Below are positions 5,226-53,194 of a DNA stretch of 64,000 nt, one piece after another. A program made the position numbers and the translations under genes. Numbering within the stretch: position 1 is the stretch's first letter; every line of letters begins with the position of its first letter. The notes beneath the pieces were generated by a model. The model searched no databases, was not told the origin of the DNA, and was given only the letters and a program-made list of their open reading frames with translations. The stretch comes from Candidatus Doudnabacteria bacterium RIFCSPHIGHO2_01_FULL_46_24 (GTDB lineage Bacteria > Patescibacteriota > Doudnabacteria > UBA920 > O2-02-FULL-48-8), in NCBI GenBank assembly GCA_001777575.1, contig MFEL01000018.1, positions 72,264 to 136,263 of the forward strand. Direction: 5' to 3'.

Positions 5226-7394
5226 TTAATTTAGTCCAAGGACAAAGAACAAGGACTTAAGCAAATCGAATTGATATTGGATCGAGATGCCACGAACTTC
5301 TCCAGAGGCGGATGGCGGTTCCAAACTTGGAGCAGTTGATTCCACAGGCGGTTTGAAATCAAAGGTTGGCGGCTGAAAGCTGCCTGTGGGCGGCTGTGAC
5401 ATCTCTGGTTTTTGCAATGAATCGGAAGGCCTGTCAAATACTCTGTCCTCGGAGCGCTTTTGGCAGAATCGGCCGTTCCAGCTGCCACCCTCCTGGATAC
5501 ACTGCCTCTGCGGATTGAATTCTTCCCTTTTTGGAACAGGAAGATTACCGTCCTCTTCCGGCCTGCGCTTAGATGCTTCATCCGATCCGCCAGCTGGAAG
5601 ATCACCTTCGCGCCGCGGCTCCTCAATCCCTCGGCCCGGAAACTGCTGCTGGCCTGGAAATCCTTCGCCGATCTTTTCCTGAAAAAATGCATTTCTCTCT
5701 TCCGCCCGCTCTTCAAACTTTCGGTACTGGTCTTCAAACTTAAATTCATACCGGCTCTCGAACCGCTGCTTCAAATCCTGCGGGATTTCCCGCTCAAAAT
5801 GCTGCTCAAATTTACGAACCTTATCAGGATCGTCTTGCACATCAAGTAGTTTTCGGAAATTGGCCGCTTGTTGGCGTTCAATCTCGCGAAACTTCGATTC
5901 AAAATTCGCGACTTCGCCCTGCAACTCGCCCTTAAGCTTTTCCAGGTATTCGATATCAGCGGGATTGAATGAGCCTAAGCGCTGGGCAAAATTGCCGTCC
6001 TGCTTCATCCGCTCAGCCATTTCCCGCTTGCCCACCTCCTCCATTTCGGCAACAAACTTTTGCTGCTGGGGCGAAAGCCTGGTTTTCAAATCTTCCATGG
6101 TTTTGAAAAAATTGGCGTCCGGCACAACCTCACCGCTCTCAACTCTGCGGTTTAAGGCCTGAAACTCTTCAGTCAGCGCCTGGGCATTTTGGTCATCGCC
6201 AAACCGGTTCAAAAATTTATCAACGCTCTCCTCATGCTTCTGCTGAACGTGCCGACGGATTTCTTCACTCGGCACAATATCTTTAATTTCATTCATGAGC
6301 TTGAGGTCCTCAACTTTGCCTTCTTTGAACTGAAACATGGCTTCGGTGATGGCTTGGCGGACCGCCTCCGAAGGGCCTGTCTCGATTCGCTTGCTGATAT
6401 GCTCGGCAATTTTGGCTTTCATTTCCGTCATCTTTTCAATCATTTCCGGCGGCAAATCGGCCCGGCTTCGGAATTGTTCCACCACTTTCATGCGCGAAAG
6501 GCCGGAACCGGGCAGTTGCTCGACATATCTTTGAAAAGTTTCAGCCTTGCGGGTGTCAGAACCAGAAAGCGTTTGGAGGTTGTTCTCGACATTGTCCAAA
6601 GACGCTTTGATGGCTTCATCCAGCGCCTCGTACCCATCTGGCAAATGTTCTTTGGCCAGTACCAGCGCCTCGGCCGCCGCAATGCCGGAAAACGGCGTCT
6701 TGAAATGTTTAAACGCCGCAGTCTTAAAAGCCTCGGCGGCTTCGGCGGAATCATCAGACGCTTTCAGCACCGCTTCGGAAGCCACAGCCAGTGCCTCTCC
6801 TTTGGTCCTTATAAAATCCGGGATCACCTCCGGATGATGCGCAAAAAGATTTTCTTGAATACTCGACAATACTCTAGGCGCGACAAATAAATTATCTTCC
6901 GCGACTCTGGCCGCCAACTCCTTGGCAAAATCCCCGTCTTTGTCTTTGATTTTTTCAATTTTATCCCGCACCGCGCCGAGCCTTGATTGGTAATCATCCA
7001 AAATTCCGACAACTTTTTCATTGCCGGGATCCAAGCTTTGCAACTTCACGGCTTCGGCTAAAGTTTTGTCTGATTGCCTCTTGAGCAGCGCTGCTGCTTT
7101 TTGGTCAGAAGCAAATGCCGAATATGCGGCTTTCTGGACATTGCGGCCGAATTTTTTGAAGCTGTAGCGAACTGAATTGAAAAAATTATTCGGCACGACC
7201 GGATCAAAATCAGCCGGCAGGCCAAATTCGGCTTTGATATCAACTTCGCCATCTGCAACCGCTTCGGCCGAAGTGGTTAACTCCTGTTCAACTTCAGCTC
7301 TGATCTCTTCCGATACCTCCTGAGCAAACGAGGCTTGAGGCAAAACTATTAATGACAAAGCCAAAAATCCTGACACGATAATTAACTTGCGCAT
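5226..7394 (-). CDS. Large secreted/surface helical protein, hypothetical
   Basis: N-terminal signal peptide, E/K/Q-rich helical body and P/S-rich tail; 722 aa. Confidence 0.7.
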   Translation of the reverse strand: MRKLIIVSGFLALSLIVLPQASFAQEVSEEIRAEVEQELTTSAEAVADGEVDIKAEFGLPADFDPVVPNNFFNSVRYSFKKFGRNVQKAAYSAFASDQKAAALLKRQSDKTLAEAVKLQSLDPGNEKVVGILDDYQSRLGAVRDKIEKIKDKDGDFAKELAARVAEDNLFVAPRVLSSIQENLFAHHPEVIPDFIRTKGEALAVASEAVLKASDDSAEAAEAFKTAAFKHFKTPFSGIAAAEALVLAKEHLPDGYEALDEAIKASLDNVENNLQTLSGSDTRKAETFQRYVEQLPGSGLSRMKVVEQFRSRADLPPEMIEKMTEMKAKIAEHISKRIETGPSEAVRQAITEAMFQFKEGKVEDLKLMNEIKDIVPSEEIRRHVQQKHEESVDKFLNRFGDDQNAQALTEEFQALNRRVESGEVVPDANFFKTMEDLKTRLSPQQQKFVAEMEEVGKREMAERMKQDGNFAQRLGSFNPADIEYLEKLKGELQGEVANFESKFREIERQQAANFRKLLDVQDDPDKVRKFEQHFEREIPQDLKQRFESRYEFKFEDQYRKFEERAEERNAFFQEKIGEGFPGQQQFPGRGIEEPRREGDLPAGGSDEASKRRPEEDGNLPVPKREEFNPQRQCIQEGGSWNGRFCQKRSEDRVFDRPSDSLQKPEMSQPPTGSFQPPTFDFKPPVESTAPSLEPPSASGEVRGISIQYQFDLLKSLFFVLGLN

Positions 7395-7525
7395 AATTTT
7401 TGTTTTATTTTTTGTTTCTGAGAGCTTTTTTCTCTTATATATAATTATAGCATATTTTCAAATTTTATGCAACATCCCAAAAACCGCAATCCTTAGCGGT
7501 TGCGGTTTTCCCTTTTTTAGAACAT

Positions 7526-7753
7526 TTACATTTGCTGTCCGGCGCTGTCGTTTTTGCACATCTTGCAGTGCTTGCTATGCATAATCAATTCATAAAGCGC
7601 GGAAAGGCCGACTAACACGTAAACCACTTTCGATACGGCCGATTCCATGCCGCCAAAGATCTGGCCCACATCCCAGCCGGTTAACGCCCAAACGCCCCAG
7701 TTGAGTCCGCCGATGGCCAGCAGGATAAAAGTGACCATGTGTAATGCTTTCAA
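7526..7753 (-). CDS. DUF378 family small membrane protein
   Basis: LLAIGGLNWG...VYVLVGLSAL signature. Confidence 0.85.
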   Translation of the reverse strand: MKALHMVTFILLAIGGLNWGVWALTGWDVGQIFGGMESAVSKVVYVLVGLSALYELIMHSKHCKMCKNDSAGQQM

Positions 7754-7944
7754 GTTTGTCTCACCCCCTTTTATATAGGCTAGTTATTAACTTAAGCAAT
7801 ATCACTATAGCACAAATTAAATTATCCCTCGCCAACCAGCCCGGGTTTAGTTATTAGTTAATGGTTAACTCCGATTGTTCGCTTTACTGGCGTAATCGTG
7901 ATACGATTAATTAAGAATCAAGGATGGACAGTTGAATAAAAAAT

Positions 7945-8220
7945 ATGCCAGAAGCAAGGCGGTTCGAACCCAACAATCGGGACTTAGAGATTGAACAACT
8001 CAAGAGAGACTTAAGCAGTTTTGGCATTCAACTTGAAGCCGCGACTGAACAATCGGAAACGAATTATGAACAGATGTCGCCGGATGAAATCATTACGCGG
8101 TTAGTAGAACAGGGAGCCGAGTTTGGTCCGGATTTAAGAAAAGCGTTGAAACGAGCGCTGGCGGGCTTGGGAGGCGCGATGGTCAATGTCAGCAACAAAT
8201 CTATCCGTGTCTTGCTTTGA
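7945..8220 (+). CDS. Hypothetical protein
   Basis: 91-aa ORF with ATG in a run of co-oriented orphan ORFs. Confidence 0.5.
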   Translation: MPEARRFEPNNRDLEIEQLKRDLSSFGIQLEAATEQSETNYEQMSPDEIITRLVEQGAEFGPDLRKALKRALAGLGGAMVNVSNKSIRVLL

Positions 8221-8356
8221 ACAAAGCGCCAGCCATGGACAAAATCCGAAAAATTTACTATAATATAAGAAAGTAAATCAAGAGGCCGCAAAAAAACCTC
8301 TTTAGTAATATATACTGAAACAAAATCAGGCTAGAATCTAATTACATGTTAATTAC

Positions 8357-8809
8357 ATGAATGAACAAACAGAAAAGAATCGCGAGGCTGCCCGGGGAGA
8401 TTTATTGCAAAAAATCGAAGACGCTATTGATCGGGTGGTTGATTTAGGCGAGGAGGCCATGGACCTGGGCATGGACGCGCTGGAAAAAGTCGGTGATAAG
8501 CTGGAGCAAAGCTGGCTTGCGCATCAGATAATAAAGCGGTACGACCGTAGAGGATTTATTGATCCCCGGTTGATTAGTGGCTCTTCCGATGAGTATCTGT
8601 TATCTGTGCACCAAAGGATGAAAGCATTTACCGGGCTTTTAGAGGAGGAAAAAAAATTCATAGCCGCTAGCCCAACCGGTAACGAAGTTCAGGATCGCCG
8701 TGTTCTTGATGAGCAAAACGCTTTAATCGAAGGCAATGCCAGGGATTTGGAAATTTTGCTGACAGAAATAAAAAAGAGAGGACTTGAAAATGCTGCCGAA
8801 ATTGGATAA
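8357..8809 (+). CDS. Hypothetical protein
   Basis: 150-aa acidic helical ORF after an AT-rich spacer. Confidence 0.6.
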   Translation: MNEQTEKNREAARGDLLQKIEDAIDRVVDLGEEAMDLGMDALEKVGDKLEQSWLAHQIIKRYDRRGFIDPRLISGSSDEYLLSVHQRMKAFTGLLEEEKKFIAASPTGNEVQDRRVLDEQNALIEGNARDLEILLTEIKKRGLENAAEIG

Positions 8810-8919
8810 TTTATTTTAAATTTATTGTCTTGCTCGTTCCAAATAATCACTACTCCTGAAACAAAAAATAATTAAAATAAAAAAATATAAATAGAGCCAG
8901 GGGCGATATTCCTCCGAGA

Positions 8920-9180
8920 ATGGATTCATCGGATCCTTACTATAATCCTGATGCCGAAAGTTTAAGGCAGGGAATAATTGAAAAACATCAGGCTAGAATG
9001 GAATCTGAGCTCGCAGATGCGCTTTGCCCGCACGGCAATATAAAATGGCAATGCCGCAAATGCCACGAACAAAACGAAGCCAAAAGAGACGCAGAAATAG
9101 AAAAGATGAGAGCCGACGCGGTTGAGGAAGCAGAGCATTTAGCAGAAAATAAGAATAATATTTATGAGCCAAGACATTGA
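8920..9180 (+). CDS. Hypothetical protein with CPHG..CxxC motif
   Basis: 86 aa; overlaps the next ORF. Confidence 0.5.
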   Translation: MDSSDPYYNPDAESLRQGIIEKHQARMESELADALCPHGNIKWQCRKCHEQNEAKRDAEIEKMRADAVEEAEHLAENKNNIYEPRH

Positions 9181-10327
9181 TCCAAAAAATTTAGGAATCA
9201 ACCCCGAAGAAATGCTGACGGATGAAATTCGGGAGAGTTCGCTGGTGTCAACCCGCCCGTCGCAAACCGGAGAATTGGTCTCGGAAGAAAAAGCTATAAG
9301 TTACCAGGAGAGGAGAGAGCTGAAATTTCAGGAAAAAATAGCGATTTCGCTGGAAAAACTTGCCGGGTATGAGGATTCCCAGTTGCTGGCCGTCTATCCG
9401 GAGTACGCTTTTAACGGTCAAACCACGGAATCCGGCGGGCCTTTGGAGGTTTTAACTGTTGCTGAAATCAGGGAAAAAATAATCCAGATGAGAGACCCGC
9501 AAAAAAATTTTTCCGGCGCCAGACCCGGCATTGGAGCGGGACCGGAACAGATTATTATTGTCTATGATGACTTGCCGCCTTTGACTCAAACAGAGGATGC
9601 AAAAGCCCGCTGGCGCGATTTTTATTCGCGGACCAGGGAGGGTAAAGAACTATTTACCCCTGAAGGAGATCGGAGATATATCGAACGGCTTAAGTTTGAG
9701 GCTCTGAACGAATTGCGCGGCCTGCGCGACGACCGGAGGATAGCGATCCGGAGTATATACGATGAAGAACTGCACATTATTGCCGTGGGCGAGCTTCGCG
9801 AACTTGTTTTGGACATGGAGAACCCAGAAAACAAACTGACTCACGGCCAGGCGTTTGATTTTTGGATTGAAGAGTATTATGAACCGGAACAATATGTACA
9901 GCGAGAGAGGGCTGATCTGGCCTTGCGAGACATCCGGCAGCGTGAACACTTGCTGGCGGAGTTGGCCGAATATAGTGACGACAAGCTGTTAACCTGGGTT
10001 TATCCAAATGAATCTCGTAATTTTTCAACTGGTCAACACGTGATTATGCAAGACTTGGCAGGCGATTTAAGGAAGAGGATAAATCAGGCTGATCATGACG
10101 AATTAGATTGGTTCAGCCACGCCGGAGGAATTAGAGTGATTGCCGTGGGTGAGGTTGACCTGGGTTTAATCGAGCAAAAAATCAGGCAAGCCGAGCAAAA
10201 TTTCCAGGTATTGCTGCAGCAAGTCATCAGGGAAGCTAATCAACGCCAAGTTAAACCCAGAAAAGACAGCGGGATAATTGACATAATCCCGGTTGACCGC
10301 AAATCCTTGCCAGGGGATGAAACATGA
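9164..10327 (+). CDS. Hypothetical protein
   Basis: 387-aa ORF with no motif recognised. Confidence 0.65.
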   Translation: MSQDIDPKNLGINPEEMLTDEIRESSLVSTRPSQTGELVSEEKAISYQERRELKFQEKIAISLEKLAGYEDSQLLAVYPEYAFNGQTTESGGPLEVLTVAEIREKIIQMRDPQKNFSGARPGIGAGPEQIIIVYDDLPPLTQTEDAKARWRDFYSRTREGKELFTPEGDRRYIERLKFEALNELRGLRDDRRIAIRSIYDEELHIIAVGELRELVLDMENPENKLTHGQAFDFWIEEYYEPEQYVQRERADLALRDIRQREHLLAELAEYSDDKLLTWVYPNESRNFSTGQHVIMQDLAGDLRKRINQADHDELDWFSHAGGIRVIAVGEVDLGLIEQKIRQAEQNFQVLLQQVIREANQRQVKPRKDSGIIDIIPVDRKSLPGDET

Positions 10328-11196
10328 AATATCTTTGTGGTATTTGCGGCAGTGTAAGCCACCCTACCGAGGAACATATAAGCCTGATTGAGGAAGAAGC
10401 ACAGGCCAAACGAAAAGCCCCGCTGTCACACGCCCTGGATGTACTTGCCCGTTTGGATACGTCTCCTTCAACCCAGGAGACGATAGATTTCGTAAACCAG
10501 CCAGTGGAGGAATGGCTGAAGCAGACGAAAAACGCCTGGTTAAAAAAGACGATTTTGGCCGAAAGGAAGAAACACGAGTCACGGCGATTAGATACTTTAT
10601 ATTCTGAAGCTATATTGAAGTCAATGTACGGCAGATTGCATGATGCCGCAGAATCAAGGCCGAGAGGCATGACACACAAAGAATTTACAGCTTATCTCGT
10701 CAAAAAAATGAGAGAGTTAGAGCTTTTTCGCGGTTTCCATAGAATCTGGGCTAAAAATCTTAGCCGTTCAGAAATAGAAACCATATATTTCTATGCGCTT
10801 AAAGATGCCGAGGATTTGTTGAAAATGCTGGAAGTCGGGCCGGGGCCTAGCCGGGACGCTGCTAGCATAATAAGGCTGCTTCACCGGCGGGACGATTTGG
10901 ACGGCGTACAAATGATTTTACTTGATTGGGAGCAGGTCAACGATACAAATTTAGACGAATCTCACGCCAATAATAATTTATCAGCATTGATAAAAAAGAT
11001 AGATGAAGCTGGAGATAAAATAATGAGAGATTTGTCCGGCACCACAATGTCTTTCGCTGACGAAAGACTGGAGAGGATCGTGCGGCTTGATGCCTGGCAA
11101 GCGGAAGACAATGATTGGTGGCTGAGGCCGGCAAGTAAGAAAATAGACGAGGAAAATGAGCGGTTCTTGAAAGAATTTAATGATGAAACTCCCTAA
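10324..11196 (+). CDS. Hypothetical protein with N-terminal CxxC..H..H motif
   Basis: 290 aa; ATGA overlap with the upstream ORF. Confidence 0.65.
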   Translation: MKYLCGICGSVSHPTEEHISLIEEEAQAKRKAPLSHALDVLARLDTSPSTQETIDFVNQPVEEWLKQTKNAWLKKTILAERKKHESRRLDTLYSEAILKSMYGRLHDAAESRPRGMTHKEFTAYLVKKMRELELFRGFHRIWAKNLSRSEIETIYFYALKDAEDLLKMLEVGPGPSRDAASIIRLLHRRDDLDGVQMILLDWEQVNDTNLDESHANNNLSALIKKIDEAGDKIMRDLSGTTMSFADERLERIVRLDAWQAEDNDWWLRPASKKIDEENERFLKEFNDETP

Positions 11197-37886: not shown

Positions 37887-38156
37887 CTAAGATATCGATA
37901 CTTTTAGTTTGCTGTCTAATGCTTTGGCCACTCGCCCAAGAAATTTTAGACTCGGGTTGAAGTTTCCTTGCTCCAAGCGGGAAATGACTGGCTGTTTAGT
38001 ACCAATCCTTTTGGCTAGTTGCTTTTGGGTCAAACCTTTTTGCAAACGCTTGGCAATCAACGTTTCTACCAAAGCAAACTCAACGCCTAATTCATCATAG
38101 GCTCTTTTAACCGCTTTGTCTTGCAGTAATTTAGACTTGAACCGTTTATATTCCAT
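37887..38156 (-). CDS. XRE-family HTH antitoxin (HigA-like)
   Basis: LTQKQLAKRIGTKQPVISRLE; downstream of a RelE-like gene. Confidence 0.85.
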   Translation of the reverse strand: MEYKRFKSKLLQDKAVKRAYDELGVEFALVETLIAKRLQKGLTQKQLAKRIGTKQPVISRLEQGNFNPSLKFLGRVAKALDSKLKVSIS

Positions 38157-38170
38157 ATTACCAATATAAC

Positions 38171-38488
38171 TTATAAGTTATAACTTGTCAAGGCCTTAAG
38201 TTTACTCTTGGCTCTGTCTAATTCTTTCCGGGGCGTTTGTTGAGATTTCTTAACGAACCCTGAAAGCAGATAAATTTTACCTTGACAAAAGCAATAAAAT
38301 ATTCTCACTTCCTGTCGGCCTCGAGTTCTTAGCTCAAATAAATTCCCGGTAATTTTTTTGCTATGCGGCATTGGCAGGCGGTAACTAAATCTTTCCAGTA
38401 AATCAACGGTTCGCAAAACTTTGGCAATCGTCTGCTTCTCTAGCGAGAAAATAAATTCTTCTATTTCTGAGTTAGTAATTATATCCAT
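38171..38488 (-). CDS. RelE/HigB (Gp49-like) toxin
   Basis: LPMPHSKKI..LFELR..RIFY..LLSGFVKKSQQTP. Confidence 0.85.
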   Translation of the reverse strand: MDIITNSEIEEFIFSLEKQTIAKVLRTVDLLERFSYRLPMPHSKKITGNLFELRTRGRQEVRIFYCFCQGKIYLLSGFVKKSQQTPRKELDRAKSKLKALTSYNL

Positions 38489-38495
38489 AAAAGGA

Positions 38496-39488
38496 TTATT
38501 TTTTATTGATCAGATTCACGATCAGCTTGATGATTACGTCTTTCTGCGAAGGATCAGACTCCGCCGTCAGCAGCGTCACGGCGGTCAGTGCCGCATCATT
38601 GATCTTGCGCTCGCCGCGCCGGTTGTAAAAAATGTCGTTCTGGATCAGATACTGCAAAAACAGCAAGGATCCGACGCGCTTATTGCCGTCCACGAACGGG
38701 TGCCCCTTGACCACAAAATACAACAAGTGCGCCGCCCGCTCCTCCAAACTTGGGTAAAGCGGCTTGCTGTTAAAAGATTGGTCAATGCTGCCGACGATGG
38801 AAGCCAGCTTGTGGCTGACTTCCACGCCGAACAGATCGCTGGCCTGTTTCGCGTTTTGCAGACGCTGCCGGAAGCGCTTGATGCTTTTGAGCACTTCTTC
38901 ATAGTTAAGCACTCTACCCGGTTTTTCGCTGACATTACTGATCGCCAGTTTCTGCTCATCATACAAATTCAAAACAAACCAGGTGTTGGCGTAGTCGGAA
39001 ATGATTTTCAAAAGTTCGCGTTCGTAGCCCTCGGCCCGATACGATTCCAGCGCCTGCTGGATGAGTTTATGCGCGGTTTCCAGTTCCTTGAGTTTCGCCA
39101 CGTGAGCTTCGGGAAGGCGCTTAGCGTTGACGACAAACCCCTTGATCAGATAGTCGCGCATTTTCTGCGTCGCCCAGATACGAAACTGGGTTGCCCGTTT
39201 GGAATTGACCCTGTATCCCACGGATAAAATAAAATCAAGATTATAAAATTTTACCGGTTTATCAGAATTTGCAATGTGCAAATTTTGCACATTGCTTTTT
39301 TCTGCCAATTCCCCTGATTTTATTATGTTTCTAAGGTGCTTGGCAACAGAACTCCGATCAGTCTGAAAAAGCTCAGAAATGCCAGCTTGGGTCAGCCAGA
39401 CAGTTTCATCATAAAGACTAACCCGCAGTTCCGGGCCGGTTTCGGCCTTATAAATGACAATTTCGCCCTTGTGTTCTTGCTTGTCCAT
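38496..39488 (-). CDS. RhuM/Fic-Doc family protein
   Basis: N-terminal RhuM (YNLDFILSVGYRVNS..FRIWAT) and Fic motif HPFVDGNKR. Confidence 0.92.
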   Translation of the reverse strand: MDKQEHKGEIVIYKAETGPELRVSLYDETVWLTQAGISELFQTDRSSVAKHLRNIIKSGELAEKSNVQNLHIANSDKPVKFYNLDFILSVGYRVNSKRATQFRIWATQKMRDYLIKGFVVNAKRLPEAHVAKLKELETAHKLIQQALESYRAEGYERELLKIISDYANTWFVLNLYDEQKLAISNVSEKPGRVLNYEEVLKSIKRFRQRLQNAKQASDLFGVEVSHKLASIVGSIDQSFNSKPLYPSLEERAAHLLYFVVKGHPFVDGNKRVGSLLFLQYLIQNDIFYNRRGERKINDAALTAVTLLTAESDPSQKDVIIKLIVNLINKK

Positions 39489-42837: not shown

Positions 42838-43909
42838 CATAATATTCGCCAGTCTTTTGCTGACGGCCCACAAAGCCGCAGCGGGGACAAATGACGCCGT
42901 CAGTATGCGCAACTGGGGGGCTGTTCAAACAGCCAAATTGGTTTTGCTAAACCAAGCCCCGCCAGCGCCACCCCTGCTTGACCCTGAGGAATTGAGTCAA
43001 ATTGAGGCGGTGGTGGCAGAAACCAATCAAAAAAGTGCCTCAGCCAAACTGGTCATCGAAAACGGACGCGCGGTGGAATTTGAGCGGGGCCAAAACGGCC
43101 AAAGCGTAGACGTATACGCGCTTTCTCAGCTGCTTATAAAACAAGCAGGTCTCGCCTTCGTCCCCATGTTCGTTTCCCAGCCAGCAGTTAACCTTGCCGA
43201 CACCAACAGCCTGGGCATTGCGGAACTCGTGGCCGTGGGCGAATCGGATTTTTCCGGCTCGCCCAAAAATCGGATTCACAACATCAAGGTCGGCAGCGCT
43301 AAATACAACGGCATTATCATCCAGCCAAGTCAAGAATTTTCTTTTAATAAATTCCTGGGCGACGTGGATGCGGAAAACGGCTTTTTGCCCGAGCTGGTGA
43401 TTAAGCGCACGGGTGTCGTGCCGGAATTCGGCGGTGGGCTCTGCCAGGTTTCCTCCACCGCGTTCCGGGCCGCCATGAATGCCGGCCTGCCGATTGTGGA
43501 ACGGCGGAACCATTCCTTTGCCGTTAAGTACTATGCCCCGCAAGGCACGGACGCCACTATTTATCCGGGTTCCACCGACCTGCGCTTCACCAATAATCTC
43601 TCCTCCCACCTTCTGATTTGGACACGAATCGAAGGCTATAAATTATACTATGATTTTTACGGAACCAAAGACGACCGGCTGGTTGAATTTGACGGCCCGA
43701 CCCAGTATGATAAAAAGGCGGACGGCTCCATGAAGGCGATCTGGACGAGGCACGTCAGCTTAAACGGCCAACAGAGCGAGCAAATCTTCAAAAGCACTTA
43801 TCTGCCGCCGGCCCTGTTCCATCCGGAAGAGCAGGCCACTACCCCAAACCCGCAAACGCCGCCGGAGCCTGCCGAAACTACACAACCCACACCAAACGAA
43901 CAGCCATGA
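42815..43909 (+). CDS. VanW family protein
   Basis: RIHNI, FSFN, GGGLCQVSST, RRNHS and DATIY. Confidence 0.9.
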   Translation: MSKLLLSSIIFASLLLTAHKAAAGTNDAVSMRNWGAVQTAKLVLLNQAPPAPPLLDPEELSQIEAVVAETNQKSASAKLVIENGRAVEFERGQNGQSVDVYALSQLLIKQAGLAFVPMFVSQPAVNLADTNSLGIAELVAVGESDFSGSPKNRIHNIKVGSAKYNGIIIQPSQEFSFNKFLGDVDAENGFLPELVIKRTGVVPEFGGGLCQVSSTAFRAAMNAGLPIVERRNHSFAVKYYAPQGTDATIYPGSTDLRFTNNLSSHLLIWTRIEGYKLYYDFYGTKDDRLVEFDGPTQYDKKADGSMKAIWTRHVSLNGQQSEQIFKSTYLPPALFHPEEQATTPNPQTPPEPAETTQPTPNEQP

Positions 43910-43915
43910 CATTAA

Positions 43916-44989
43916 CTATCGCTCTGGTATGACAGCCGTGCCCGTTCTTTCAAAATACTCCCTATCAAAAACCAACTGAAGCAAATCTTGCTCCAAGCCA
44001 TGGCCATTGCAGTGCGTGAGCATACCCAAATACGATTGGATTGTCTGGATAAAAGATCCTTGACTTAATTGCCCGGCTTCAAATTTATTGCGGGCCAGTG
44101 CTATTTTTCTAAACATCCGCCTTTTAGTCTTATTTCTCAAGACTATATGATGGGGCAGAATTATATAGCCCAGAGAATCAATTCCTTGCCCAAATTTTCT
44201 GATCGATACTTTATCGGGGTGCAACGATAGCTGCAGTTCTTGCTGCAAAAGATGTTGAATGGTAGCGCACTGGTTTATCAGCTCGTGTTTATTCGACGAT
44301 AAAATTATAAAATCGTCAGCGTACCGAAAATAATGCCTGGCATGCAGCCGATGTTTAATAAACTGATCTAGTTCATTCAAATATATGTTGGCAAAAATCT
44401 GCGAGCTTAAATTCCCAATCGGAAGTCCTGTAACTCTCTCTCTCTCTCTTGAAAAATTATCCACAACAAAACTTTTAACAACCTCTTCAATTAGCCACAA
44501 AAAGTGTTTGTCGCTGATTTTATTTTTAATTATCTGCAACAGCTTCTGGTGAGAAACGCTGTAGAAAAACTTGTAGATGTCGCATTTGAGCGCAAATACA
44601 TTCCTGCTATTGTTGCGGCTTACCTTTCTTAAAGCGATTGCCAAATTATTAACAGCCAAATGCGTTCCCTTATCCAAACGGGAAGCATAGGAGTGGTAAA
44701 TAAATTTGGGGTCAAATATCCGATACAGTTCATTAAAAATCAGATGATGAACCAGGCGATCACGAACAGTCGCCTTGCTAATAACCCGGTGTTTCGGATC
44801 CCAAATATGGAAAGTAATATAAGGTCCGTGCCGATAAGTCTGATTCTCAAGTTGTCGGTGAAGTTCAAAAATATTATCTTCCAAGTGCCGCTCAAATTCC
44901 AAGACATCCCTCTTCTTTTGTTTCTCTTTCCTAAATTCGTCCCAGCATAAAAATAAATTATCAATATGCAAGAATTGCCTATTCTCCAT
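43916..44989 (-). CDS. DGR reverse transcriptase
   Basis: PKHRVI, RDRLVHH, KGTH, KCDIYKFF, GLPIGNLSSQ (DGR-type SQ) and RYADDF; no maturase or endonuclease domain. Confidence 0.95.
   Translation of the reverse strand: MENRQFLHIDNLFLCWDEFRKEKQKKRDVLEFERHLEDNIFELHRQLENQTYRHGPYITFHIWDPKHRVISKATVRDRLVHHLIFNELYRIFDPKFIYHSYASRLDKGTHLAVNNLAIALRKVSRNNSRNVFALKCDIYKFFYSVSHQKLLQIIKNKISDKHFLWLIEEVVKSFVVDNFSRERERVTGLPIGNLSSQIFANIYLNELDQFIKHRLHARHYFRYADDFIILSSNKHELINQCATIQHLLQQELQLSLHPDKVSIRKFGQGIDSLGYIILPHHIVLRNKTKRRMFRKIALARNKFEAGQLSQGSFIQTIQSYLGMLTHCNGHGLEQDLLQLVFDREYFERTGTAVIPER
44434..44449. repeat. (CT)8 / (GA)8 microsatellite inside RT
   Basis: CTCTCTCTCTCTCTCT encodes RERER just before GLPIGN. 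Confidence 0.9.
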
Positions 44990-45304
44990 AAATTAACCGA
45001 ATTTTATAAAACATTTTATCTCTATCTCGCCTCTTTTCCTCAAAAGGATAAATATGCCCTTGGCGCCAAATGCGAAGGCTATATTATTTCAACTCTTGAA
45101 TTATTATTGGCAGCGGAATACGCCAGCAAAAATCAAAGGCTGCAACTAATACAGCAGGCTTCCGTCAAATTCGATATGCTTAAGTCTTTTATCCGTATCG
45201 CCAAGGAGCTGAAAATTCTGGATCAGAAAAAATACATCCGCCTGGAAGCGGAATTACAAGAGATCGGCCGCCAGCTGGGAGGCTGGCAGCGATCTTTGAG
45301 CTAA
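44966..45304 (+). CDS. avd: DGR accessory variability determinant (Avd-like four-helix bundle)
   Basis: 112 aa; LPILHK, FPQKDKYALG and EIGRQLGGW; lies between RT and TR. Confidence 0.88.
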   Translation: MQELPILHKLTEFYKTFYLYLASFPQKDKYALGAKCEGYIISTLELLLAAEYASKNQRLQLIQQASVKFDMLKSFIRIAKELKILDQKKYIRLEAELQEIGRQLGGWQRSLS

Positions 45305-45316
45305 AGCATAGACGCA

Positions 45317-45433
45317 ACCCGAGGAGGCACACGCCGCCGGAGTAGTTGTCGTTGGCATTCAGATTCCTGTTGTCGAACTTCAACTTGTCGTCGTTGGCCT
45401 TGAAGTAGAGCGAGTGCTGCTTCGACTGCCAGA
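45317..45433 (-). repeat. DGR template repeat (TR)
   Basis: 117-bp copy of the VR; 30 adenines on the minus strand, in codons such as AAC, AAT, AAG and GAC. Confidence 0.95.
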
Positions 45434-45612
45434 ATTTGTCTTTTTCCTTCCACTAGCACCGGAGAATAATTACTTATCCTCCTGAATTTCATTTCGTCCG
45501 CAATGGACGTTGAAAAAAGACAAGTAGTGTCTATACTTTTTGCATGTATAGGATTTCAGCGGCTTAAGTCCGTAAACTTAAGCGCATTAACCTACTTTCA
45601 AGAATAATTTTA

Positions 45613-45652
45613 TAACAAAAGAAAAACGGGAGCAATCAAGGACTGCTCCCGT
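45613..45652 (-). terminator. Rho-independent terminator of the DGR target gene
   Basis: ACGGGAGCA/TGCTCCCGT 9-bp stem followed by TTTTCTTTTGTT on the minus strand. Confidence 0.7.
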
Positions 45653-45654
45653 CC

Positions 45655-45672
45655 GGACTCCTCCGAGAGTCC
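45655..45672 (-). promoter_or_regulatory. Candidate DGR homing hairpin downstream of VR
   Basis: GGACTC-6 nt-GAGTCC inverted repeat 32 nt past the target stop; absent after TR. Confidence 0.55.
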
Positions 45673-45704
45673 AAAACCCAAAACCCGAGAAACCGACGAA
45701 TGCA

Positions 45705-46646
45705 CTACCCGAGGAGGCACACGCCGCCGGAGTAGTTGTCGTAGGCACACAGATCCCCGCAGCCGAACCACAACCGGTCGCCGAAAGCCCTGAAGTAGAG
45801 CGAGTGCTGCCCCGACTGCCAGAGCACTGCGGCACAGTCCAAACCCGGCGTCTGGTAATCGCGCGCCAGCACGTCTGGGTAGGTGGTCAGCGCTGCTGCC
45901 GGCTCGATGACCCCGCACAGCAACACGTCCGCAGGCAGCGTAGCCATCTGCTCCCGATCTGCCGGGATCGAAAATCCCTGCAGGCAGTTCGGGGAATAGC
46001 CCAGCACAACCGAACCTTCGGCCAGCTTGCGCAGCAGGCGGTTGTGGCTTTGGGCCACGACCTTGACCTGCTTGGCCAGTTCCCCTTCGCGGTAGTTCTT
46101 GAAGCTGCGCCCGGGAAATTGCTGCTCGTAAGCCCGCTTGACCCCGGCCAGCAGCTTGTCGTCGGTAAACTGGCCTAGATCGCCAATCTGCATTTTCGGC
46201 AACGCCAACGGCAACACCATGCCATGAGTAGGCAGGTTGGCCATGAGCGGATCAGTCGCGAGACGGCAGAGAATCGCCGCGAACCGCGCTTCGAACTCGT
46301 CAGCTGACATGAACGCGCTGCCGCCGAAGTGCTCCACGAACCGCTCGAGACGCGCCGCAAAGTCCACTTTCGGCTGGTCGAGGTAGAACGACCGGTTCGC
46401 ATCCACAGCCTTGGCCTTCATGCCTTGGGGTGGGATGCGACGGCCGTTGCTGTCGAACAGCGGTTTGATCGGCTCTTCCAGCACGAACTCGCCCGATTCG
46501 TTTTCCGTGTCTGGCTTGGTAATCTTGAAAACGAGCCTGCCGCTCTTCACGGCTAACGCGTTCTCATTACCGCCAAGGTTGCTGATGAGCGAGCGGTAGT
46601 CGTTCCCGCTCCAAGGCCCCAACGTTTCCCATTCTATGAGTTTCAT
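45705..46646 (-). CDS. DGR target (hypervariable) protein of unknown function
   Basis: 313 aa with C-terminal VR, AAGGAGG SD and GC-rich coding sequence. Confidence 0.92.
   Translation of the reverse strand: MKLIEWETLGPWSGNDYRSLISNLGGNENALAVKSGRLVFKITKPDTENESGEFVLEEPIKPLFDSNGRRIPPQGMKAKAVDANRSFYLDQPKVDFAARLERFVEHFGGSAFMSADEFEARFAAILCRLATDPLMANLPTHGMVLPLALPKMQIGDLGQFTDDKLLAGVKRAYEQQFPGRSFKNYREGELAKQVKVVAQSHNRLLRKLAEGSVVLGYSPNCLQGFSIPADREQMATLPADVLLCGVIEPAAALTTYPDVLARDYQTPGLDCAAVLWQSGQHSLYFRAFGDRLWFGCGDLCAYDNYSGGVCLLG
45707..45823 (-). repeat. DGR variable repeat (VR)
   Basis: Encodes the last 38 aa of the target: WQSGQHSLYFRAFGDRLWFGCGDLCAYDNYSGGVCLLG. Confidence 0.95.
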
Positions 46647-46755
46647 ATTTCCTCCTTCAGGCTAACTTGCCCGAAGAACATTTGCCCCTTATCCCGAGGC
46701 CCAGGGTCCGAGTTCTGTCGGAGCCGCAGTTGTCCCCCTGATTGCAGGACATCGT

Positions 46756-46784
46756 ATCCTAGCCATTTTTGACGAATTTGTCAA
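46756..46784 (-). promoter_or_regulatory. Sigma-70 promoter for the DGR target gene
   Basis: TTGACA-17 nt-TAGGAT on the minus strand. Confidence 0.6.
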
Positions 46785-46824
46785 GGCTGGGTTACAATAC
46801 CAATAAGTATTCATCAACCATGAA

Positions 46825-46944
46825 TCCCGTTAGAAATAGGCCAACCTCTTCCTTTAATATAAGCTCGTTGTTTTATCAAAATTTAAGCAAAATTAATTAT
46901 CATCGCGCTTTGTTTCCGTTAAGCGCGGCTGATTTCTAACGGGA
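46825..46944. mobile_element. 120-bp MITE-like element, copy 2
   Basis: Perfect 13-bp TIR TCCCGTTAGAAAT/ATTTCTAACGGGA with TGAA on both flanks. Confidence 0.75.
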
Positions 46945-48188
46945 TGAAAAAAAATTACCAACCGCCCCAAATCATTCTTGACCGCTACGCCAAAGTTTTG
47001 GTGCGGTTTGCGCTGGGCGGCGGCAAGGGTATCAAAAAAGGCGATGTCGTGCGCGTTTCCAGCAGCGAATCCGGGCGCCAGCTGTATTTAGCCGTGTGCA
47101 ACGCCGTGATTGACGAAGGCGGCCACGTCCTGCCGCATTATTCGCCGGATGACGAACAAGGCGATAAGCGCCGCAACGAAAGCTTTACCCGATACTTCTA
47201 TGAACACGCGCAGGACCACCAGATGGATCACTTCCCGCATAAATATCTCAAGGGCTTGGTCGAGCAGATGGATCATTCAATTTTTATTCTGGCTGATGCC
47301 GACCCGCATGCGCTCAAAGGAGTCAATCCTAAAAAAATTATGCGCCGCGGCGTGGCCTTAAAGCCGTTCATGGACTGGCGGCACAAAAAAGAGTGGCAGG
47401 GCAGATTTACCTGGACCATTGCGCTTTATGGCACGCCGGCCATGGCCGCCGAAGCCGGCCTTTCCCCGAAAGCGTATTGGAACCAAATAATCAAGGCCTG
47501 CTTTCTTGACCAGAAAGATCCAATTGCGAAATGGAAAGATGTTTACCGGAAATTGGAACACTATCGCCGAGCGTTAAATCGGCTCTCGCCCCGAATTGAC
47601 CGGCTCCATGTTGTCGGGCCGGATGTCAATCTTTGGATCAAACCGGGCGAGAAAAGGCTGTGGCTGGGCGGCAGCGGCCGCAACATTCCCAGTTTTGAAC
47701 TGTTCACTTCTCCAGACTGGCGCGGCACTAAAGGTTGGATTCGGTTCAACCAGCCGCTTTATCGTTACGGCAGTAAGGTCACCGGCATTCAACTTTGGTT
47801 TGAAAACGGCCAGGTTATCAAAAGCCAGGCCAGAACAGGCGAAAAGCTGCTGAAAGAAATGATTGCCACGCCTGGCGCCAATAAGGTTGGAGAGTTCTCC
47901 TTAACCGACCGCCGCTTCAGCCGCATCACCAAGTTCATGGCCGAAACGCTGTTTGACGAAAACATGGGCGGGCCCCACGGCAACACCCACATCGCCCTGG
48001 GCATGTCTTACCGCGATACGTTCGACGGCAACGCCGCCAAACTTTCCAAAAAACAAGCCGAGGCCCTGGGGTTCAACGACTCGTCTGTCCATACCGACAT
48101 CATCTCCACCGCGCCCCGCACGGTCACGGCGCATCTGAAAAACGGCCAAGAAAAAATCATCTACAACCGCGGTCAGTTTGTCATCTAA
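46944..48188 (+). CDS. Aminopeptidase (M29, AmpS/T family)
   Basis: NIPSFELFTSP, GEFSL, LFDEN..HIALG and SSVHTDI. Confidence 0.92.
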   Translation: MKKNYQPPQIILDRYAKVLVRFALGGGKGIKKGDVVRVSSSESGRQLYLAVCNAVIDEGGHVLPHYSPDDEQGDKRRNESFTRYFYEHAQDHQMDHFPHKYLKGLVEQMDHSIFILADADPHALKGVNPKKIMRRGVALKPFMDWRHKKEWQGRFTWTIALYGTPAMAAEAGLSPKAYWNQIIKACFLDQKDPIAKWKDVYRKLEHYRRALNRLSPRIDRLHVVGPDVNLWIKPGEKRLWLGGSGRNIPSFELFTSPDWRGTKGWIRFNQPLYRYGSKVTGIQLWFENGQVIKSQARTGEKLLKEMIATPGANKVGEFSLTDRRFSRITKFMAETLFDENMGGPHGNTHIALGMSYRDTFDGNAAKLSKKQAEALGFNDSSVHTDIISTAPRTVTAHLKNGQEKIIYNRGQFVI

Positions 48189-50288: not shown

Positions 50289-51812
50289 TCACCGCGAGGC
50301 GGTGGCTTTTTGATAGACAACTGTGAAGAACTGCTCCCACTCGGGGTGGACCACGACGTGAATCGTGTCCTGCGACCCTTCGGGGATGAACGCCAACATG
50401 CCCACACTCTCAAGGTCCGAGAGTATGAACAACAGATCGCGGCGGTAGGCCGAGGACTTGCCTTTGAGGGGCAAATCGAACGCCTTGCCGATGGTGTGAG
50501 TCGGGAGTGCCGTGCGGGCGTTGGGGTTGCTTCCCTGCAGCCGCCCCTGGTATTCCTCGCTGCGCACCAGACTGTTGACTTCGATTGCCTGGAAGTTGCG
50601 GCCGGCAAGCAGCCGCGCCTCATTGGCGATGTAGATCAGCAGCCCGACCGTGGCCGGCTCCGAAGCGACGTACGCCTGCCGATTTTTCGGATCCCTCTCC
50701 GCAATCGGTGACTTACCAGCCAACCGCGGCGACAGTCCGTACTGAGCGTACGGGACCGGCAGGGGTACCAATCGCCGCTCTGCGGTGACAGAGCCAGTCG
50801 CTTGGCGCGTGGCCTCCTGGATCGCCGCCAAGTCCTCAAACTTGAGCTGTTCAACCTGCTCGGGCGTGAAGAAGGTCCACATGCGGCTGGGGGCCACCCG
50901 GTCGTCAAAGCGGTTGCGGTGAAGCGCAAACCGCTTGGCGTACGAACTGGGGTCCTTGCGGAAGTTGGCCAGCAGCTCCCACGCCTTGATGACGCGGGGA
51001 TAGTAGGTCTTGCCGAAGTCCGGCAGACGTTGGAGAGCCGAATACACCCCGGTTCGATAGTAGGGAGTGTTGCCGAAGTACACCGAGGCGTAGCTCAAAC
51101 CGTGACGCTTGATTGCCGCCGCAGCCGTACTACTGTTCACCGAGCCACCGGCTGCCGCAGACAACACCCGCAACACTCGACCCATGCCGTCGTGGTATTC
51201 CTGGACGGCAAAATCTCCGCGGTTGCCGAACAGTCGGATGGTGCGGCTAAACCTGCGCGCCATAGCCGGAATGATTTTCTCCGGCATGAGCCGCTCGTCA
51301 TAAACCACCACGTCCCCATAAACCGGCTTTGTCACTGCCGGAATCAGGCGGCGGTTTTTGCCAGTCCCAACCCAGCGCGCCTTGCGCGTGACGCGCGTGC
51401 CAATCTGCCTCCGCTCGGTCTTGATAACCAGGCCTTCCTCTTTGGCCGAGGCGCGGGAGAATTGTCCAAGGCCACGAGGTCCGGTCGGCGATTGTGCATC
51501 TGCCTCGCAGTAGCTTTCGACGAAAGCTACGGACGCGAGCAGGAACGGATCGATTCGCGGAGTGACTGAAGTACTGCCAGACTCGAAGAGCGGCCAGTAC
51601 TTCATGCACCTCGCCGGCGCGCCTTCAGCCTTGGGGTGCCGCAGCAGCCAGAACTCTTGGGCGTCTTGCAGCAGCCTCATCCGCGCCTCGAGCAATTGAG
51701 GCGTGAGCTTCTCCCGATCCTTGCCCACTCCGACAATGCGATCGAAGGAGGAGGCGTGCAGTGCAACGATGCCGGCAAGCATAACTATTGCCAGTATCAG
51801 CAGTTTCTTCAT
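50289..51812 (-). CDS. Secreted lytic transglycosylase (SLT) + DUF5715/M15-like domain protein
   Basis: Signal peptide; IDPFLLASVAFVES..A.SPTGPRGLGQF (SLT); SLVRS..YQ..L...N.NA....THTIGKAFDL...IHVVV. GAGGAGG SD. Confidence 0.75.
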   Translation of the reverse strand: MKKLLILAIVMLAGIVALHASSFDRIVGVGKDREKLTPQLLEARMRLLQDAQEFWLLRHPKAEGAPARCMKYWPLFESGSTSVTPRIDPFLLASVAFVESYCEADAQSPTGPRGLGQFSRASAKEEGLVIKTERRQIGTRVTRKARWVGTGKNRRLIPAVTKPVYGDVVVYDERLMPEKIIPAMARRFSRTIRLFGNRGDFAVQEYHDGMGRVLRVLSAAAGGSVNSSTAAAAIKRHGLSYASVYFGNTPYYRTGVYSALQRLPDFGKTYYPRVIKAWELLANFRKDPSSYAKRFALHRNRFDDRVAPSRMWTFFTPEQVEQLKFEDLAAIQEATRQATGSVTAERRLVPLPVPYAQYGLSPRLAGKSPIAERDPKNRQAYVASEPATVGLLIYIANEARLLAGRNFQAIEVNSLVRSEEYQGRLQGSNPNARTALPTHTIGKAFDLPLKGKSSAYRRDLLFILSDLESVGMLAFIPEGSQDTIHVVVHPEWEQFFTVVYQKATASR

Positions 51813-51864
51813 TGTCTCCTCCTCTGGAAACAAAAAGGTGCCCGGACCTATTCCGGAACACCAA

Positions 51865-51931
51865 ATCCTAGCATTTTAGGCCTCTTTCGTCAAGCACTGC
51901 TCTTGACAAATTGGCCAGAAAGGAGTATACT
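51865..51931. promoter_or_regulatory. Back-to-back divergent sigma-70 promoters
   Basis: Minus strand: TTGACG-17-TAGGAT (51865-51893). Plus strand: TTGACA-17-TATACT (51903-51931). Confidence 0.65.
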
Positions 51932-52005
51932 TAGGGGTTTCAAGCTGCCCATGCAACAGGAGAGCTTGGAACAGCAGATTTCAATATAGAAGGGGGGGAT
52001 ATTTT

Positions 52006-52269
52006 TTGAAGGCAAGAGGGCGACCGGCGTGCGCCGGGTATGTCGTGGGCTTTGAAGTTTCCAAGCATGATCCAACGCGGGTCAATTGGAAAGTCAAAGT
52101 CCAGGCCGGCCCTCGAGCGCTCGTCGGCAAGAAGTTCTGCATTGAGTCGCACCACGTGCCCAAGAACATTCACGAGGGCATGGACGTGTTGTTCGATGTG
52201 GACGACCACGGGGTAGGGAAACCGGTGGCGATCAACGTGTTCCGCGTGGTGATCGTCGCCAACCGTTAA
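52006..52269 (+). CDS. Small hypothetical beta-rich protein
   Basis: 87 aa, TTG start after a purine-rich SD-like stretch. Confidence 0.5.
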   Translation: MKARGRPACAGYVVGFEVSKHDPTRVNWKVKVQAGPRALVGKKFCIESHHVPKNIHEGMDVLFDVDDHGVGKPVAINVFRVVIVANR

Positions 52270-52312
52270 CCGCTCGGGTAGTCCCGCACAAGGCGGGACA
52301 AGGAGAGCAGAG

Positions 52313-53194
52313 ATGAAGCGATTCACGTCGTTCCTCGTCGTCCTGGCCGTGCTGTGCATGGCCAACCTCGCGTTCGCGCAGGCCAACCCGGCAGGGCTGC
52401 CGACCGGTCCCTCGACCGGCGGCGTGAACCCCGCGCAGACGCCGCCCACCGCGACCTCGCCGGACGCCGTGCGCCAGGCCATGGCTGACAAGGCCAAGGC
52501 CGACGCGACCGAGAAGGCGACCAAGGACAAGGCGGCCATCGATGCGCGTCTCTCGATCGCAACGGCGCAGGCCGAGGCGGACAAGGCTGCGGTCGATTCG
52601 CGACTCGCGGTTCTCAACGCGCAGATTGACGGGCAGCTCAGCACGAACGCCCCGATCAATGTGGCCGGCGTGAACCTCACGACGACCATGACAGCGGCCG
52701 TCCCGAGCGAGAGCGACCCGCTGTTCCGGTCGTTCCTCCGCGGCATGGCCGAGGAGTACGGGGTCAACTACAACGACCTCGTTAAACTCCTGCAGTCCCG
52801 GAAGGCCGGCACGTCGAAGCAGGCCGTTGAGACGCTCTTCGCCGCGCGGGAGAAGAGCTTCAGCGACCGCATCGAGCAGCGGCTCGCCGAGCTCGCGACC
52901 AAGGCCGAGGTCAATACCCTCGGCTCGCGCATCAACGGCGCGGCAACGGAAGCCGCAACGGCCATCGCCGCGGCGGACACAGCTTCCAACGACGCCGCAT
53001 TCGCCCTCGAGGGTGTCGGCGTCATCACCAACGCCCTCAACCGGGCGACGGTGACGGAGCGGAGACCGACGCCGGTGCTGTCGATTTTCGGCCACAGTAA
53101 GGCTGTGGAGCGGCCGTTGTTCGAGGATCCCCTCGTCATCGACCGCGTCGTCGCGCGAATCGCCGCGCTCAGGAAGACGGGCGTCATCAAGTAG
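52313..53194 (+). CDS. Secreted Ala/Thr-rich coiled-coil protein
   Basis: Signal peptide ending AFA-Q, AGGAG SD and strongly GC3-biased codons. Confidence 0.8.
   Translation: MKRFTSFLVVLAVLCMANLAFAQANPAGLPTGPSTGGVNPAQTPPTATSPDAVRQAMADKAKADATEKATKDKAAIDARLSIATAQAEADKAAVDSRLAVLNAQIDGQLSTNAPINVAGVNLTTTMTAAVPSESDPLFRSFLRGMAEEYGVNYNDLVKLLQSRKAGTSKQAVETLFAAREKSFSDRIEQRLAELATKAEVNTLGSRINGAATEAATAIAAADTASNDAAFALEGVGVITNALNRATVTERRPTPVLSIFGHSKAVERPLFEDPLVIDRVVARIAALRKTGVIK

Follow-up and report, generated by a model that had tools for sequence, protein, structure and literature searches.

The 64,000-nucleotide stretch of Candidatus Doudnabacteria bacterium RIFCSPHIGHO2_01_FULL_46_24 analysed here (contig MFEL01000018.1, positions 72,264 to 136,263; called the window) carries a diversity-generating retroelement (DGR) of the type met in the Candidate Phyla Radiation (CPR). 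It is highly probable that this element has rewritten adenine positions in the final 38 codons of a protein with a predicted lectin fold, and that an AG repeat within its reverse transcriptase (RT) gene, whose reading frame is kept in this genome, likely switches its activity. In DGRs a complex of the RT with the Avd protein copies an RNA bearing the template repeat (TR) and misincorporates opposite A, and the cDNA replaces the variable repeat (VR) of the target gene. We propose that the RT-Avd complex encoded here would copy a TR-bearing RNA in this way, with misincorporation opposite A and replacement of the VR by the cDNA; that the template RNA would begin with a structure resembling the Rfam motif RT-16 and end shortly after the TR; that slippage of the AG tract would turn the RT on and off; and that an N-terminal module of the target protein, together with the leader of its mRNA, would set the amount of the target.

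The retroelement and its adenine-specific change

Over their 117 ungapped bases (coordinates in Table 1) TR and VR differ at 19 sites, 18 of which are TR adenines. Read from TR to VR on the coding (minus) strand, the changes comprise 11 A>G, 6 A>T, 1 A>C and one C>T, the last being a synonymous GCC>GCT and the sole change away from an adenine. Change has struck 18 of the 30 adenines and 1 of the 87 other bases (Fisher p = 2e-12). The adenines are spread over 20 of the 38 codons, and these adenine-bearing codons set an upper bound of 2.6e17 peptides. A preliminary description of this DNA had reported the repeats, and we reproduced exactly its coordinates, the 19 mismatches, the substitution classes, the adenine and codon counts and both peptides. 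The search for further VR copies elsewhere in the genome, which it had recommended, was run and found no second VR for the window TR in the assembly, leaving one target and no remote VR. The final 36 bases of TR and VR are identical, resembling an initiation of mutagenic homing (IMH) sequence, and divergence begins at the target stop codon, as it also does in relatives. Adenine-free, G/T-rich stretches like the one that follows the target stop codon were also noticed 3' of the VRs of most relatives and of a second DGR of this genome (described below).

The RT falls within the 300-500 aa of DGR-class enzymes and has a single Pfam domain and no additional nuclease domain, with GNLSSQ at residue 192 and YADD at residue 223. 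Its nearest solved relative is PDB chain 8ub7_A (129 bits, E 1.8e-36), which we take to be the BPP-1 enzyme; the next chain scores 73 bits and belongs to the group II enzymes. We weighed whether the RT might be a group II intron maturase or a retron RT lying beside an ordinary duplication. Its best NCBIfam match is indeed the group II intron model TIGR04416, with 146 bits, under half the cut-off of 300. The adenine bias (18 of the 19 mismatches) and the adjoining avd gene refute this explanation, and its probability is close to nil: the closest solved RT outscores the group II enzymes by the margin given above, no Rfam group II or retron RNA matched within 43500-47200, and relatives bear TR/VR pairs of their own. 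The element is an intact, complete chromosomal DGR, since its core parts are intact, its closest solved RT is 8ub7_A and its neighbours are ordinary chromosomal genes. This bears out the earlier claims of an RT with GNLSSQ/YADD adjacent to an Avd-like gene, both of which are intact, and of a complete chromosomal DGR; the likeness to BPP-1 claimed with it holds only in part, as gene order and RNA layout differ.

RT, TR and target share one strand; avd runs in the opposite direction, and its start overlaps the RT start by 24 bases. The resulting order, target-TR-(avd)-RT with avd reversed, is architecture B3. The order TR-(avd)-RT makes up 90% of a published CPR DGR set (Wu et al. 2018, PMC5758913; papers are cited throughout for the parts of them drawn on here). 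In 48 of 50 RT-avd pairs, a subset of loci selected from search matches, avd is opposite to RT. Matches to the RT at E 1e-20 were found in 56 of the 146 genomes of the class, and CPR phyla are the source of the target's named homologues.

The cassette of about 3 kb sits in a tsaE-vanW-aminopeptidase-ruvB block, and the identities of its flanking genes, VanW-like and M29 aminopeptidase, confirmed the site between vanW and an aminopeptidase given in the preliminary description. In 8 of the 12 family relatives that hold the aminopeptidase the site is empty, with vanW directly before the aminopeptidase and no DGR; the remaining 4 have a more distant aminopeptidase in a different context. Judged from these empty sites, the cassette is an insertion. 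The GC content is 0.40 in RT, 0.41 in avd, 0.61 in the target and 0.53-0.54 in the flanks. The inverted-repeat element at the right edge is probably not part of the DGR.

Table 1. Features of the retroelement and its right edge (window positions)
Feature	Position	Strand	Remarks
DGR reverse transcriptase (RT), intact	43916..44989	-	357 aa; PF00078 86.5 bits
AG dinucleotide tract, 16 bases	44434..44449	-	inside RT just before GNLSSQ; in frame here
avd, 112 aa	44966..45304	+	PF22296 72.2 bits (cut-off 40, passed); NF033474 75 bits (cut-off 80, missed by 5); phrog_3206
Template repeat (TR)	45317..45433	-	30 adenines; outside annotated genes; 12 bases to avd stop
Conserved structured RNA directly 5' of TR	45430..45551	-	122 bases; weakly like Rfam RT-16
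Terminator-like hairpin after target gene	45624..45654	-	
Adenine-free G/T-rich stretch	45671..45700	-	directly after target stop
Target gene, 313 aa	45705..46646	-	predicted divergent C-type-lectin fold, residues ~108-313
Variable repeat (VR)	45707..45823	-	final 38 codons of target; IMH-like 3' end
N-terminal module of target, ~45 residues	46506..46646	-	common to targets of other VR classes
Structured 5' leader, 72 bases	46651..46722	-	hairpin P1, possible pseudoknot with hairpin P2, hairpin P3 abutting Shine-Dalgarno sequence
Sigma-70-type promoter of target	46756..46784	-	TTGACA, 17 bases, TAGGAT; similar boxes before homologous leaders
122-base inverted-repeat element, right edge of insertion	46824..46945		76% identical copy at G000:C18:84630-84751

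A second, separate B3 DGR lies on contig C12 (positions 7029-9717 of locus L001, whose numbering is used for it here), with its own TR (8541-8637) and VR (9017-9113). Adenines account for 15 of its 16 TR/VR mismatches, and its RT is 42% identical to the window RT. Its target adjoins a gene (9964-10926), transcribed away from it, that resembles a XerC/D-type tyrosine recombinase as judged from sequence. Among the relatives, five loci (L052 on G028:C16, L106, L114, L125 and L128) have the target beyond the RT and on the strand opposite to the TR, and two others (L049 on G127:C3 and L050 on G139:C18) hold tandem pairs of same-family targets that both match one TR. Elsewhere in the window, 50289-53194 has a GC content of about 0.6 and holds two genes, one of 514 aa that weakly matches SLT transglycosylases and one of 293 aa with no Pfam match; at 37887-39488 a small helix-turn-helix gene, a 105-aa gene judged from its sequence to be toxin-antitoxin-like and a RhuM/Fic gene stand in a row.

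The AG tract and the activity of the element

The AG tract encodes a RERER loop preceding GNLSSQ and is the only AG/CT run of at least 12 bases in the 847-kb genome. In a tree of 51 RT copies, built with the loop columns omitted and with no group II or retron outgroup, the window RT fell in a clade of nine (support 98/100), eight of which carry a purine tract at the loop site: AG runs of 16, 18, 18, 30, 32 and 38 bases and G runs of 7 and 10. Of these eight tract-bearing RTs, six are out of frame at the tract, compared with 1 of the 42 tract-free RTs that could be scored (a single row could not); the nominal p of 1e-5 overstates this contrast, as split RTs were fetched deliberately and kin are non-independent. 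In the six shifted genes neither half contains a stop, and the catalytic motifs are kept. From lineage to lineage the tract varies in length and thereby moves the reading frame, as in phase-variable contingency loci, and on this evidence we lean towards slipped-strand changes in tract length that would gate the RT as a phase-variation switch. Several points weigh against it. All six cluster members share one tract peptide, with no length change within the species; six of eight out of frame corresponds to the two thirds expected from random lengths; and the out-of-frame tracts may possibly be errors of assembly. Paul and colleagues, writing in Nat Microbiol in 2017, reportedly described tracts of AG and of poly-G in the DGR RTs of CPR bacteria and suggested that slipped-strand changes control them, so the tract is probably an already published feature.

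Two further observations were made on RT genes. In the C12 DGR nine consecutive C, read as G on the RT strand, lie at 8132-8140 of L001, in the overlap of the avd and RT starts; both genes are in frame, and the run is a candidate second slippage site. Tract-free RTs (L001, L009, L098, L099 and L100) often carry insertions of 20-40 codons, some palindromic-looking, in the same loop before GNLTSQ; judged by these sequences, the loop tolerates insertions.

The scarcity of changes away from adenines had been taken in the preliminary description as a sign of recent activity, a reading that our data do not support. The stretch is present in nine sequencing runs, all of DNA and all as contigs, of which eight were examined. 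Contigs crossed the variable part of the VR in 8 of 8 runs with no alternative letter; contigs drop rare variants, and 6 of the 8 runs may be the assembly's own source. The VR is covered by five cluster members: four carry the identical sequence, and the fifth departs from it at a codon that has no adenine in the TR. Equally clean pairs occur beside out-of-frame RTs in relatives, where adenines hold 19 of 19, 21 of 21 and 15 of 15 mismatches, with 12 of 15 in another; only A-to-N differences are found in 65% of DGRs (PMC5758913). A clean adenine pattern does not date activity, given that published share and the clean pairs beside out-of-frame RTs.

These data bear on the view that the DGR is genuine and now dormant or spent, with a single round of mutagenesis fixed, the AG tract being a fragile loop insertion that kills RTs irreversibly and the targets persisting as fixed genes. 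The unchanged VR in the contigs of all eight runs is in keeping with it, as are the 10 of 18 target-homologue loci with no RT in the fetched stretch, one more locus with only decayed pieces of avd and RT, and the genome of the closest target homologue (G012, 97% complete), which gave no RT match. The other in-frame tract-bearing member of the clade (G001) has the longest tract, and its RT also carries a stop and an N run. The six shifted RTs argue the other way, having no second lesion over about 330 codons and retaining clean TR/VR pairs, as does the tract itself, which varies in type (AG or G runs) at a constant site in a genome without another AG run of 12 bases or more. We regard dormancy as possible but rather doubtful, and keep to a gated RT as the preferred reading. 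Only two tract-bearing RTs of the clade are in frame, and of these the window RT alone is otherwise undamaged, which makes it the natural choice for reconstituting a B3-type DGR.

Template RNA, leader and N-terminal module

The RNA directly 5' of the TR is conserved and structured, with a folding z of -4.6 (0 of 200 shuffles) and two-sided change at 12 of 20 predicted consensus pairs among eight sequences. It matched RT-16 (RF03019) over the whole model with 30.4 bits, below the gathering score of 50. A full-length weak match was found at the same position in G127, and weak matches lie near the RT loci of G025 and G109; at the cut-off, RT-16 was found in 0 of the 146 genomes. RT motifs have been speculated to act in DGRs (Weinberg et al. 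2017, PMC5737381). In BPP-1 a spacer of about 140 bases 3' of the TR is needed, with priming at A56 (Handa et al. 2018, 10.1101/344556); here 12 bases separate the TR end from the avd stop, too few for a spacer of that type, and in most clade relatives a terminator-like hairpin, found by eye, lies within about 30 bases of the TR. We infer that the upstream RT-16-like RNA would take over the role of the spacer. Since the template RNA would start with this structure and end soon after the TR, it would not be primed from a BPP-1-type downstream spacer, and the BPP-1 spacer model in its present form would not account for priming in B3-type DGRs. A point against this reading is that the avd antisense sequence folds too (z -2.3) and could itself form the spacer. 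In a low-depth contig of a related organism (runs X1 and X2) 119 extra letters stand between the TR and the avd end (45299-45304).

The target matched nothing in Pfam, NCBIfam, PHROG or PDB and has no strong hydrophobic segment; residues ~108-313 are predicted to form a divergent C-type-lectin fold. Its leader is 70% identical (E 1e-7) to that of the otherwise unrelated C12 target, which shares with it the N-terminal module of about 45 residues and has a different C-terminal domain. Among 27 distinct aligned leaders 81% of cells pair, as compared to 71.5% in shuffles (0 of 500) and 31-54% in slid controls; the structure was named by the analyst, and 19 of the 27 leaders trained the model. In the last stem G-U outnumbers A-C by 30 to 3, an excess that points to the leader acting as RNA. 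The pseudoknot is possible in 27 of 27 leaders and has no covariation support.

A search of the class with the leader model gave six strong new matches, all of which precede module genes, and four weak ones, none of which does. In a sample of the phylum 7 of 9 matches precede module genes, whose C-termini belong, by eye, to at least four VR classes, and in an exact-pattern scan of GTDB 13 of 23 do, a number that includes some loci from the earlier counts; the remaining 10 matches are in unrelated genomes. No leader match came from 30 DGR loci whose targets are of other kinds and may not all be covered at the 5' end, and Rfam gave none for the leader. The leader model also finds targets located away from any RT. 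Three module genes found without the model have one recognisable leader, one degenerate leader and none, respectively. The module has the pattern helix-helix-helix-hairpin, with weak winged-helix look-alikes at template-modelling (TM) scores below 0.5.

The target would be a soluble ligand sensor whose amount is controlled by the N-terminal module and the mRNA leader; autoregulation by the two is a tentative proposal, which we consider doubtful. We give an even chance to a different explanation, that the leader is not bound by the target's own module and is a general translation or transcription element (a ligand-sensing switch, a host-factor site or a stabilising structure) carried along with the gene's 5' end. 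Joint inheritance would be expected of a promoter, leader and module that directly adjoin one another, as they do here. The one absent and one degenerate leader among the three module genes and the sub-threshold TM scores fit this explanation as well, as does a truncated leader without the last hairpin (E 0.0015; L086:1501-1579 on G041:C16) that precedes an unrelated 100-aa gene resembling PpnP-type nucleoside phosphorylases. What speaks against this explanation is that leader and module stay together in targets of at least four C-terminal VR classes and in several families, and that the 30 loci with other targets gave no leader match. In two proteins (P0068 and P0069) a TIR/SEFIR domain is fused to the target-family C-terminal domain.

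A wider view would be that the DGRs of this clade are regulated machines, with a slippery repeat as on/off switch, an RT-16-like upstream organisation of the template, and a portable unit of promoter, pseudoknot leader and 45-residue nucleic-acid-binding module that is swapped onto different hypervariable lectin domains and, by binding to its own mRNA, determines how much of them is made. In this view the TIR fusions would suggest that the targets are intracellular sensors and not surface adhesins. Taken as a whole we hold this to be unlikely. The leader and module offer a handle on the role and control of CPR DGR targets.

Relation to known systems

The element is of the published CPR DGR type and is new only as a further member. 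Such elements are common in CPR bacteria, so the DGR itself adds little, and its value is that of a clean test case. With the B3 group of Wu et al. 2018 (PMC5758913) it shares gene order, strands, a chromosomal site and an uncharacterised target without a transmembrane or known domain, and a same-family VR was recognised by eye among the ungrouped 'misc' VRs of that study (entry t266). Its core is no different from B3; the RT tract, the RNA 5' of the TR, the leader, the module and the target fold are not mentioned in the parts of PMC5758913 and PMC8144416 drawn on here. The interest lies in these attached control features, of which the tract is probably known from earlier work, while the literature searched yielded no leader-module unit.

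DGR clade 2 (Roux et al. 2021, PMC8144416) is among the closest known systems. BPP-1 (mtd-avd-TR-brt; 10.1101/344556) is alike in the adenine-specific change from TR to VR, the RT with Avd, the C-terminal VR and the identical 3' end of TR and VR. It differs in that here an antisense avd stands between TR and RT, 12 bases separate the TR from the avd stop in place of a 140-base spacer with A56, a structured RNA lies 5' of the TR, no hairpin with a GRNA loop occurs within 34 bases of the VR, and the host is a bacterium and not a phage. For that structured RNA the comparison is with Rfam RT-16, matched weakly over its full length (score 30 against a gathering score of 50), and for the target with the DGR variable proteins of C-type-lectin (CLec) fold, TvpA, Mtd, TaqVP and AvpA (PMC5006420). 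The RT tract finds its likeness in the simple-sequence contingency loci, in which an intragenic repeat of variable length shifts the reading frame.
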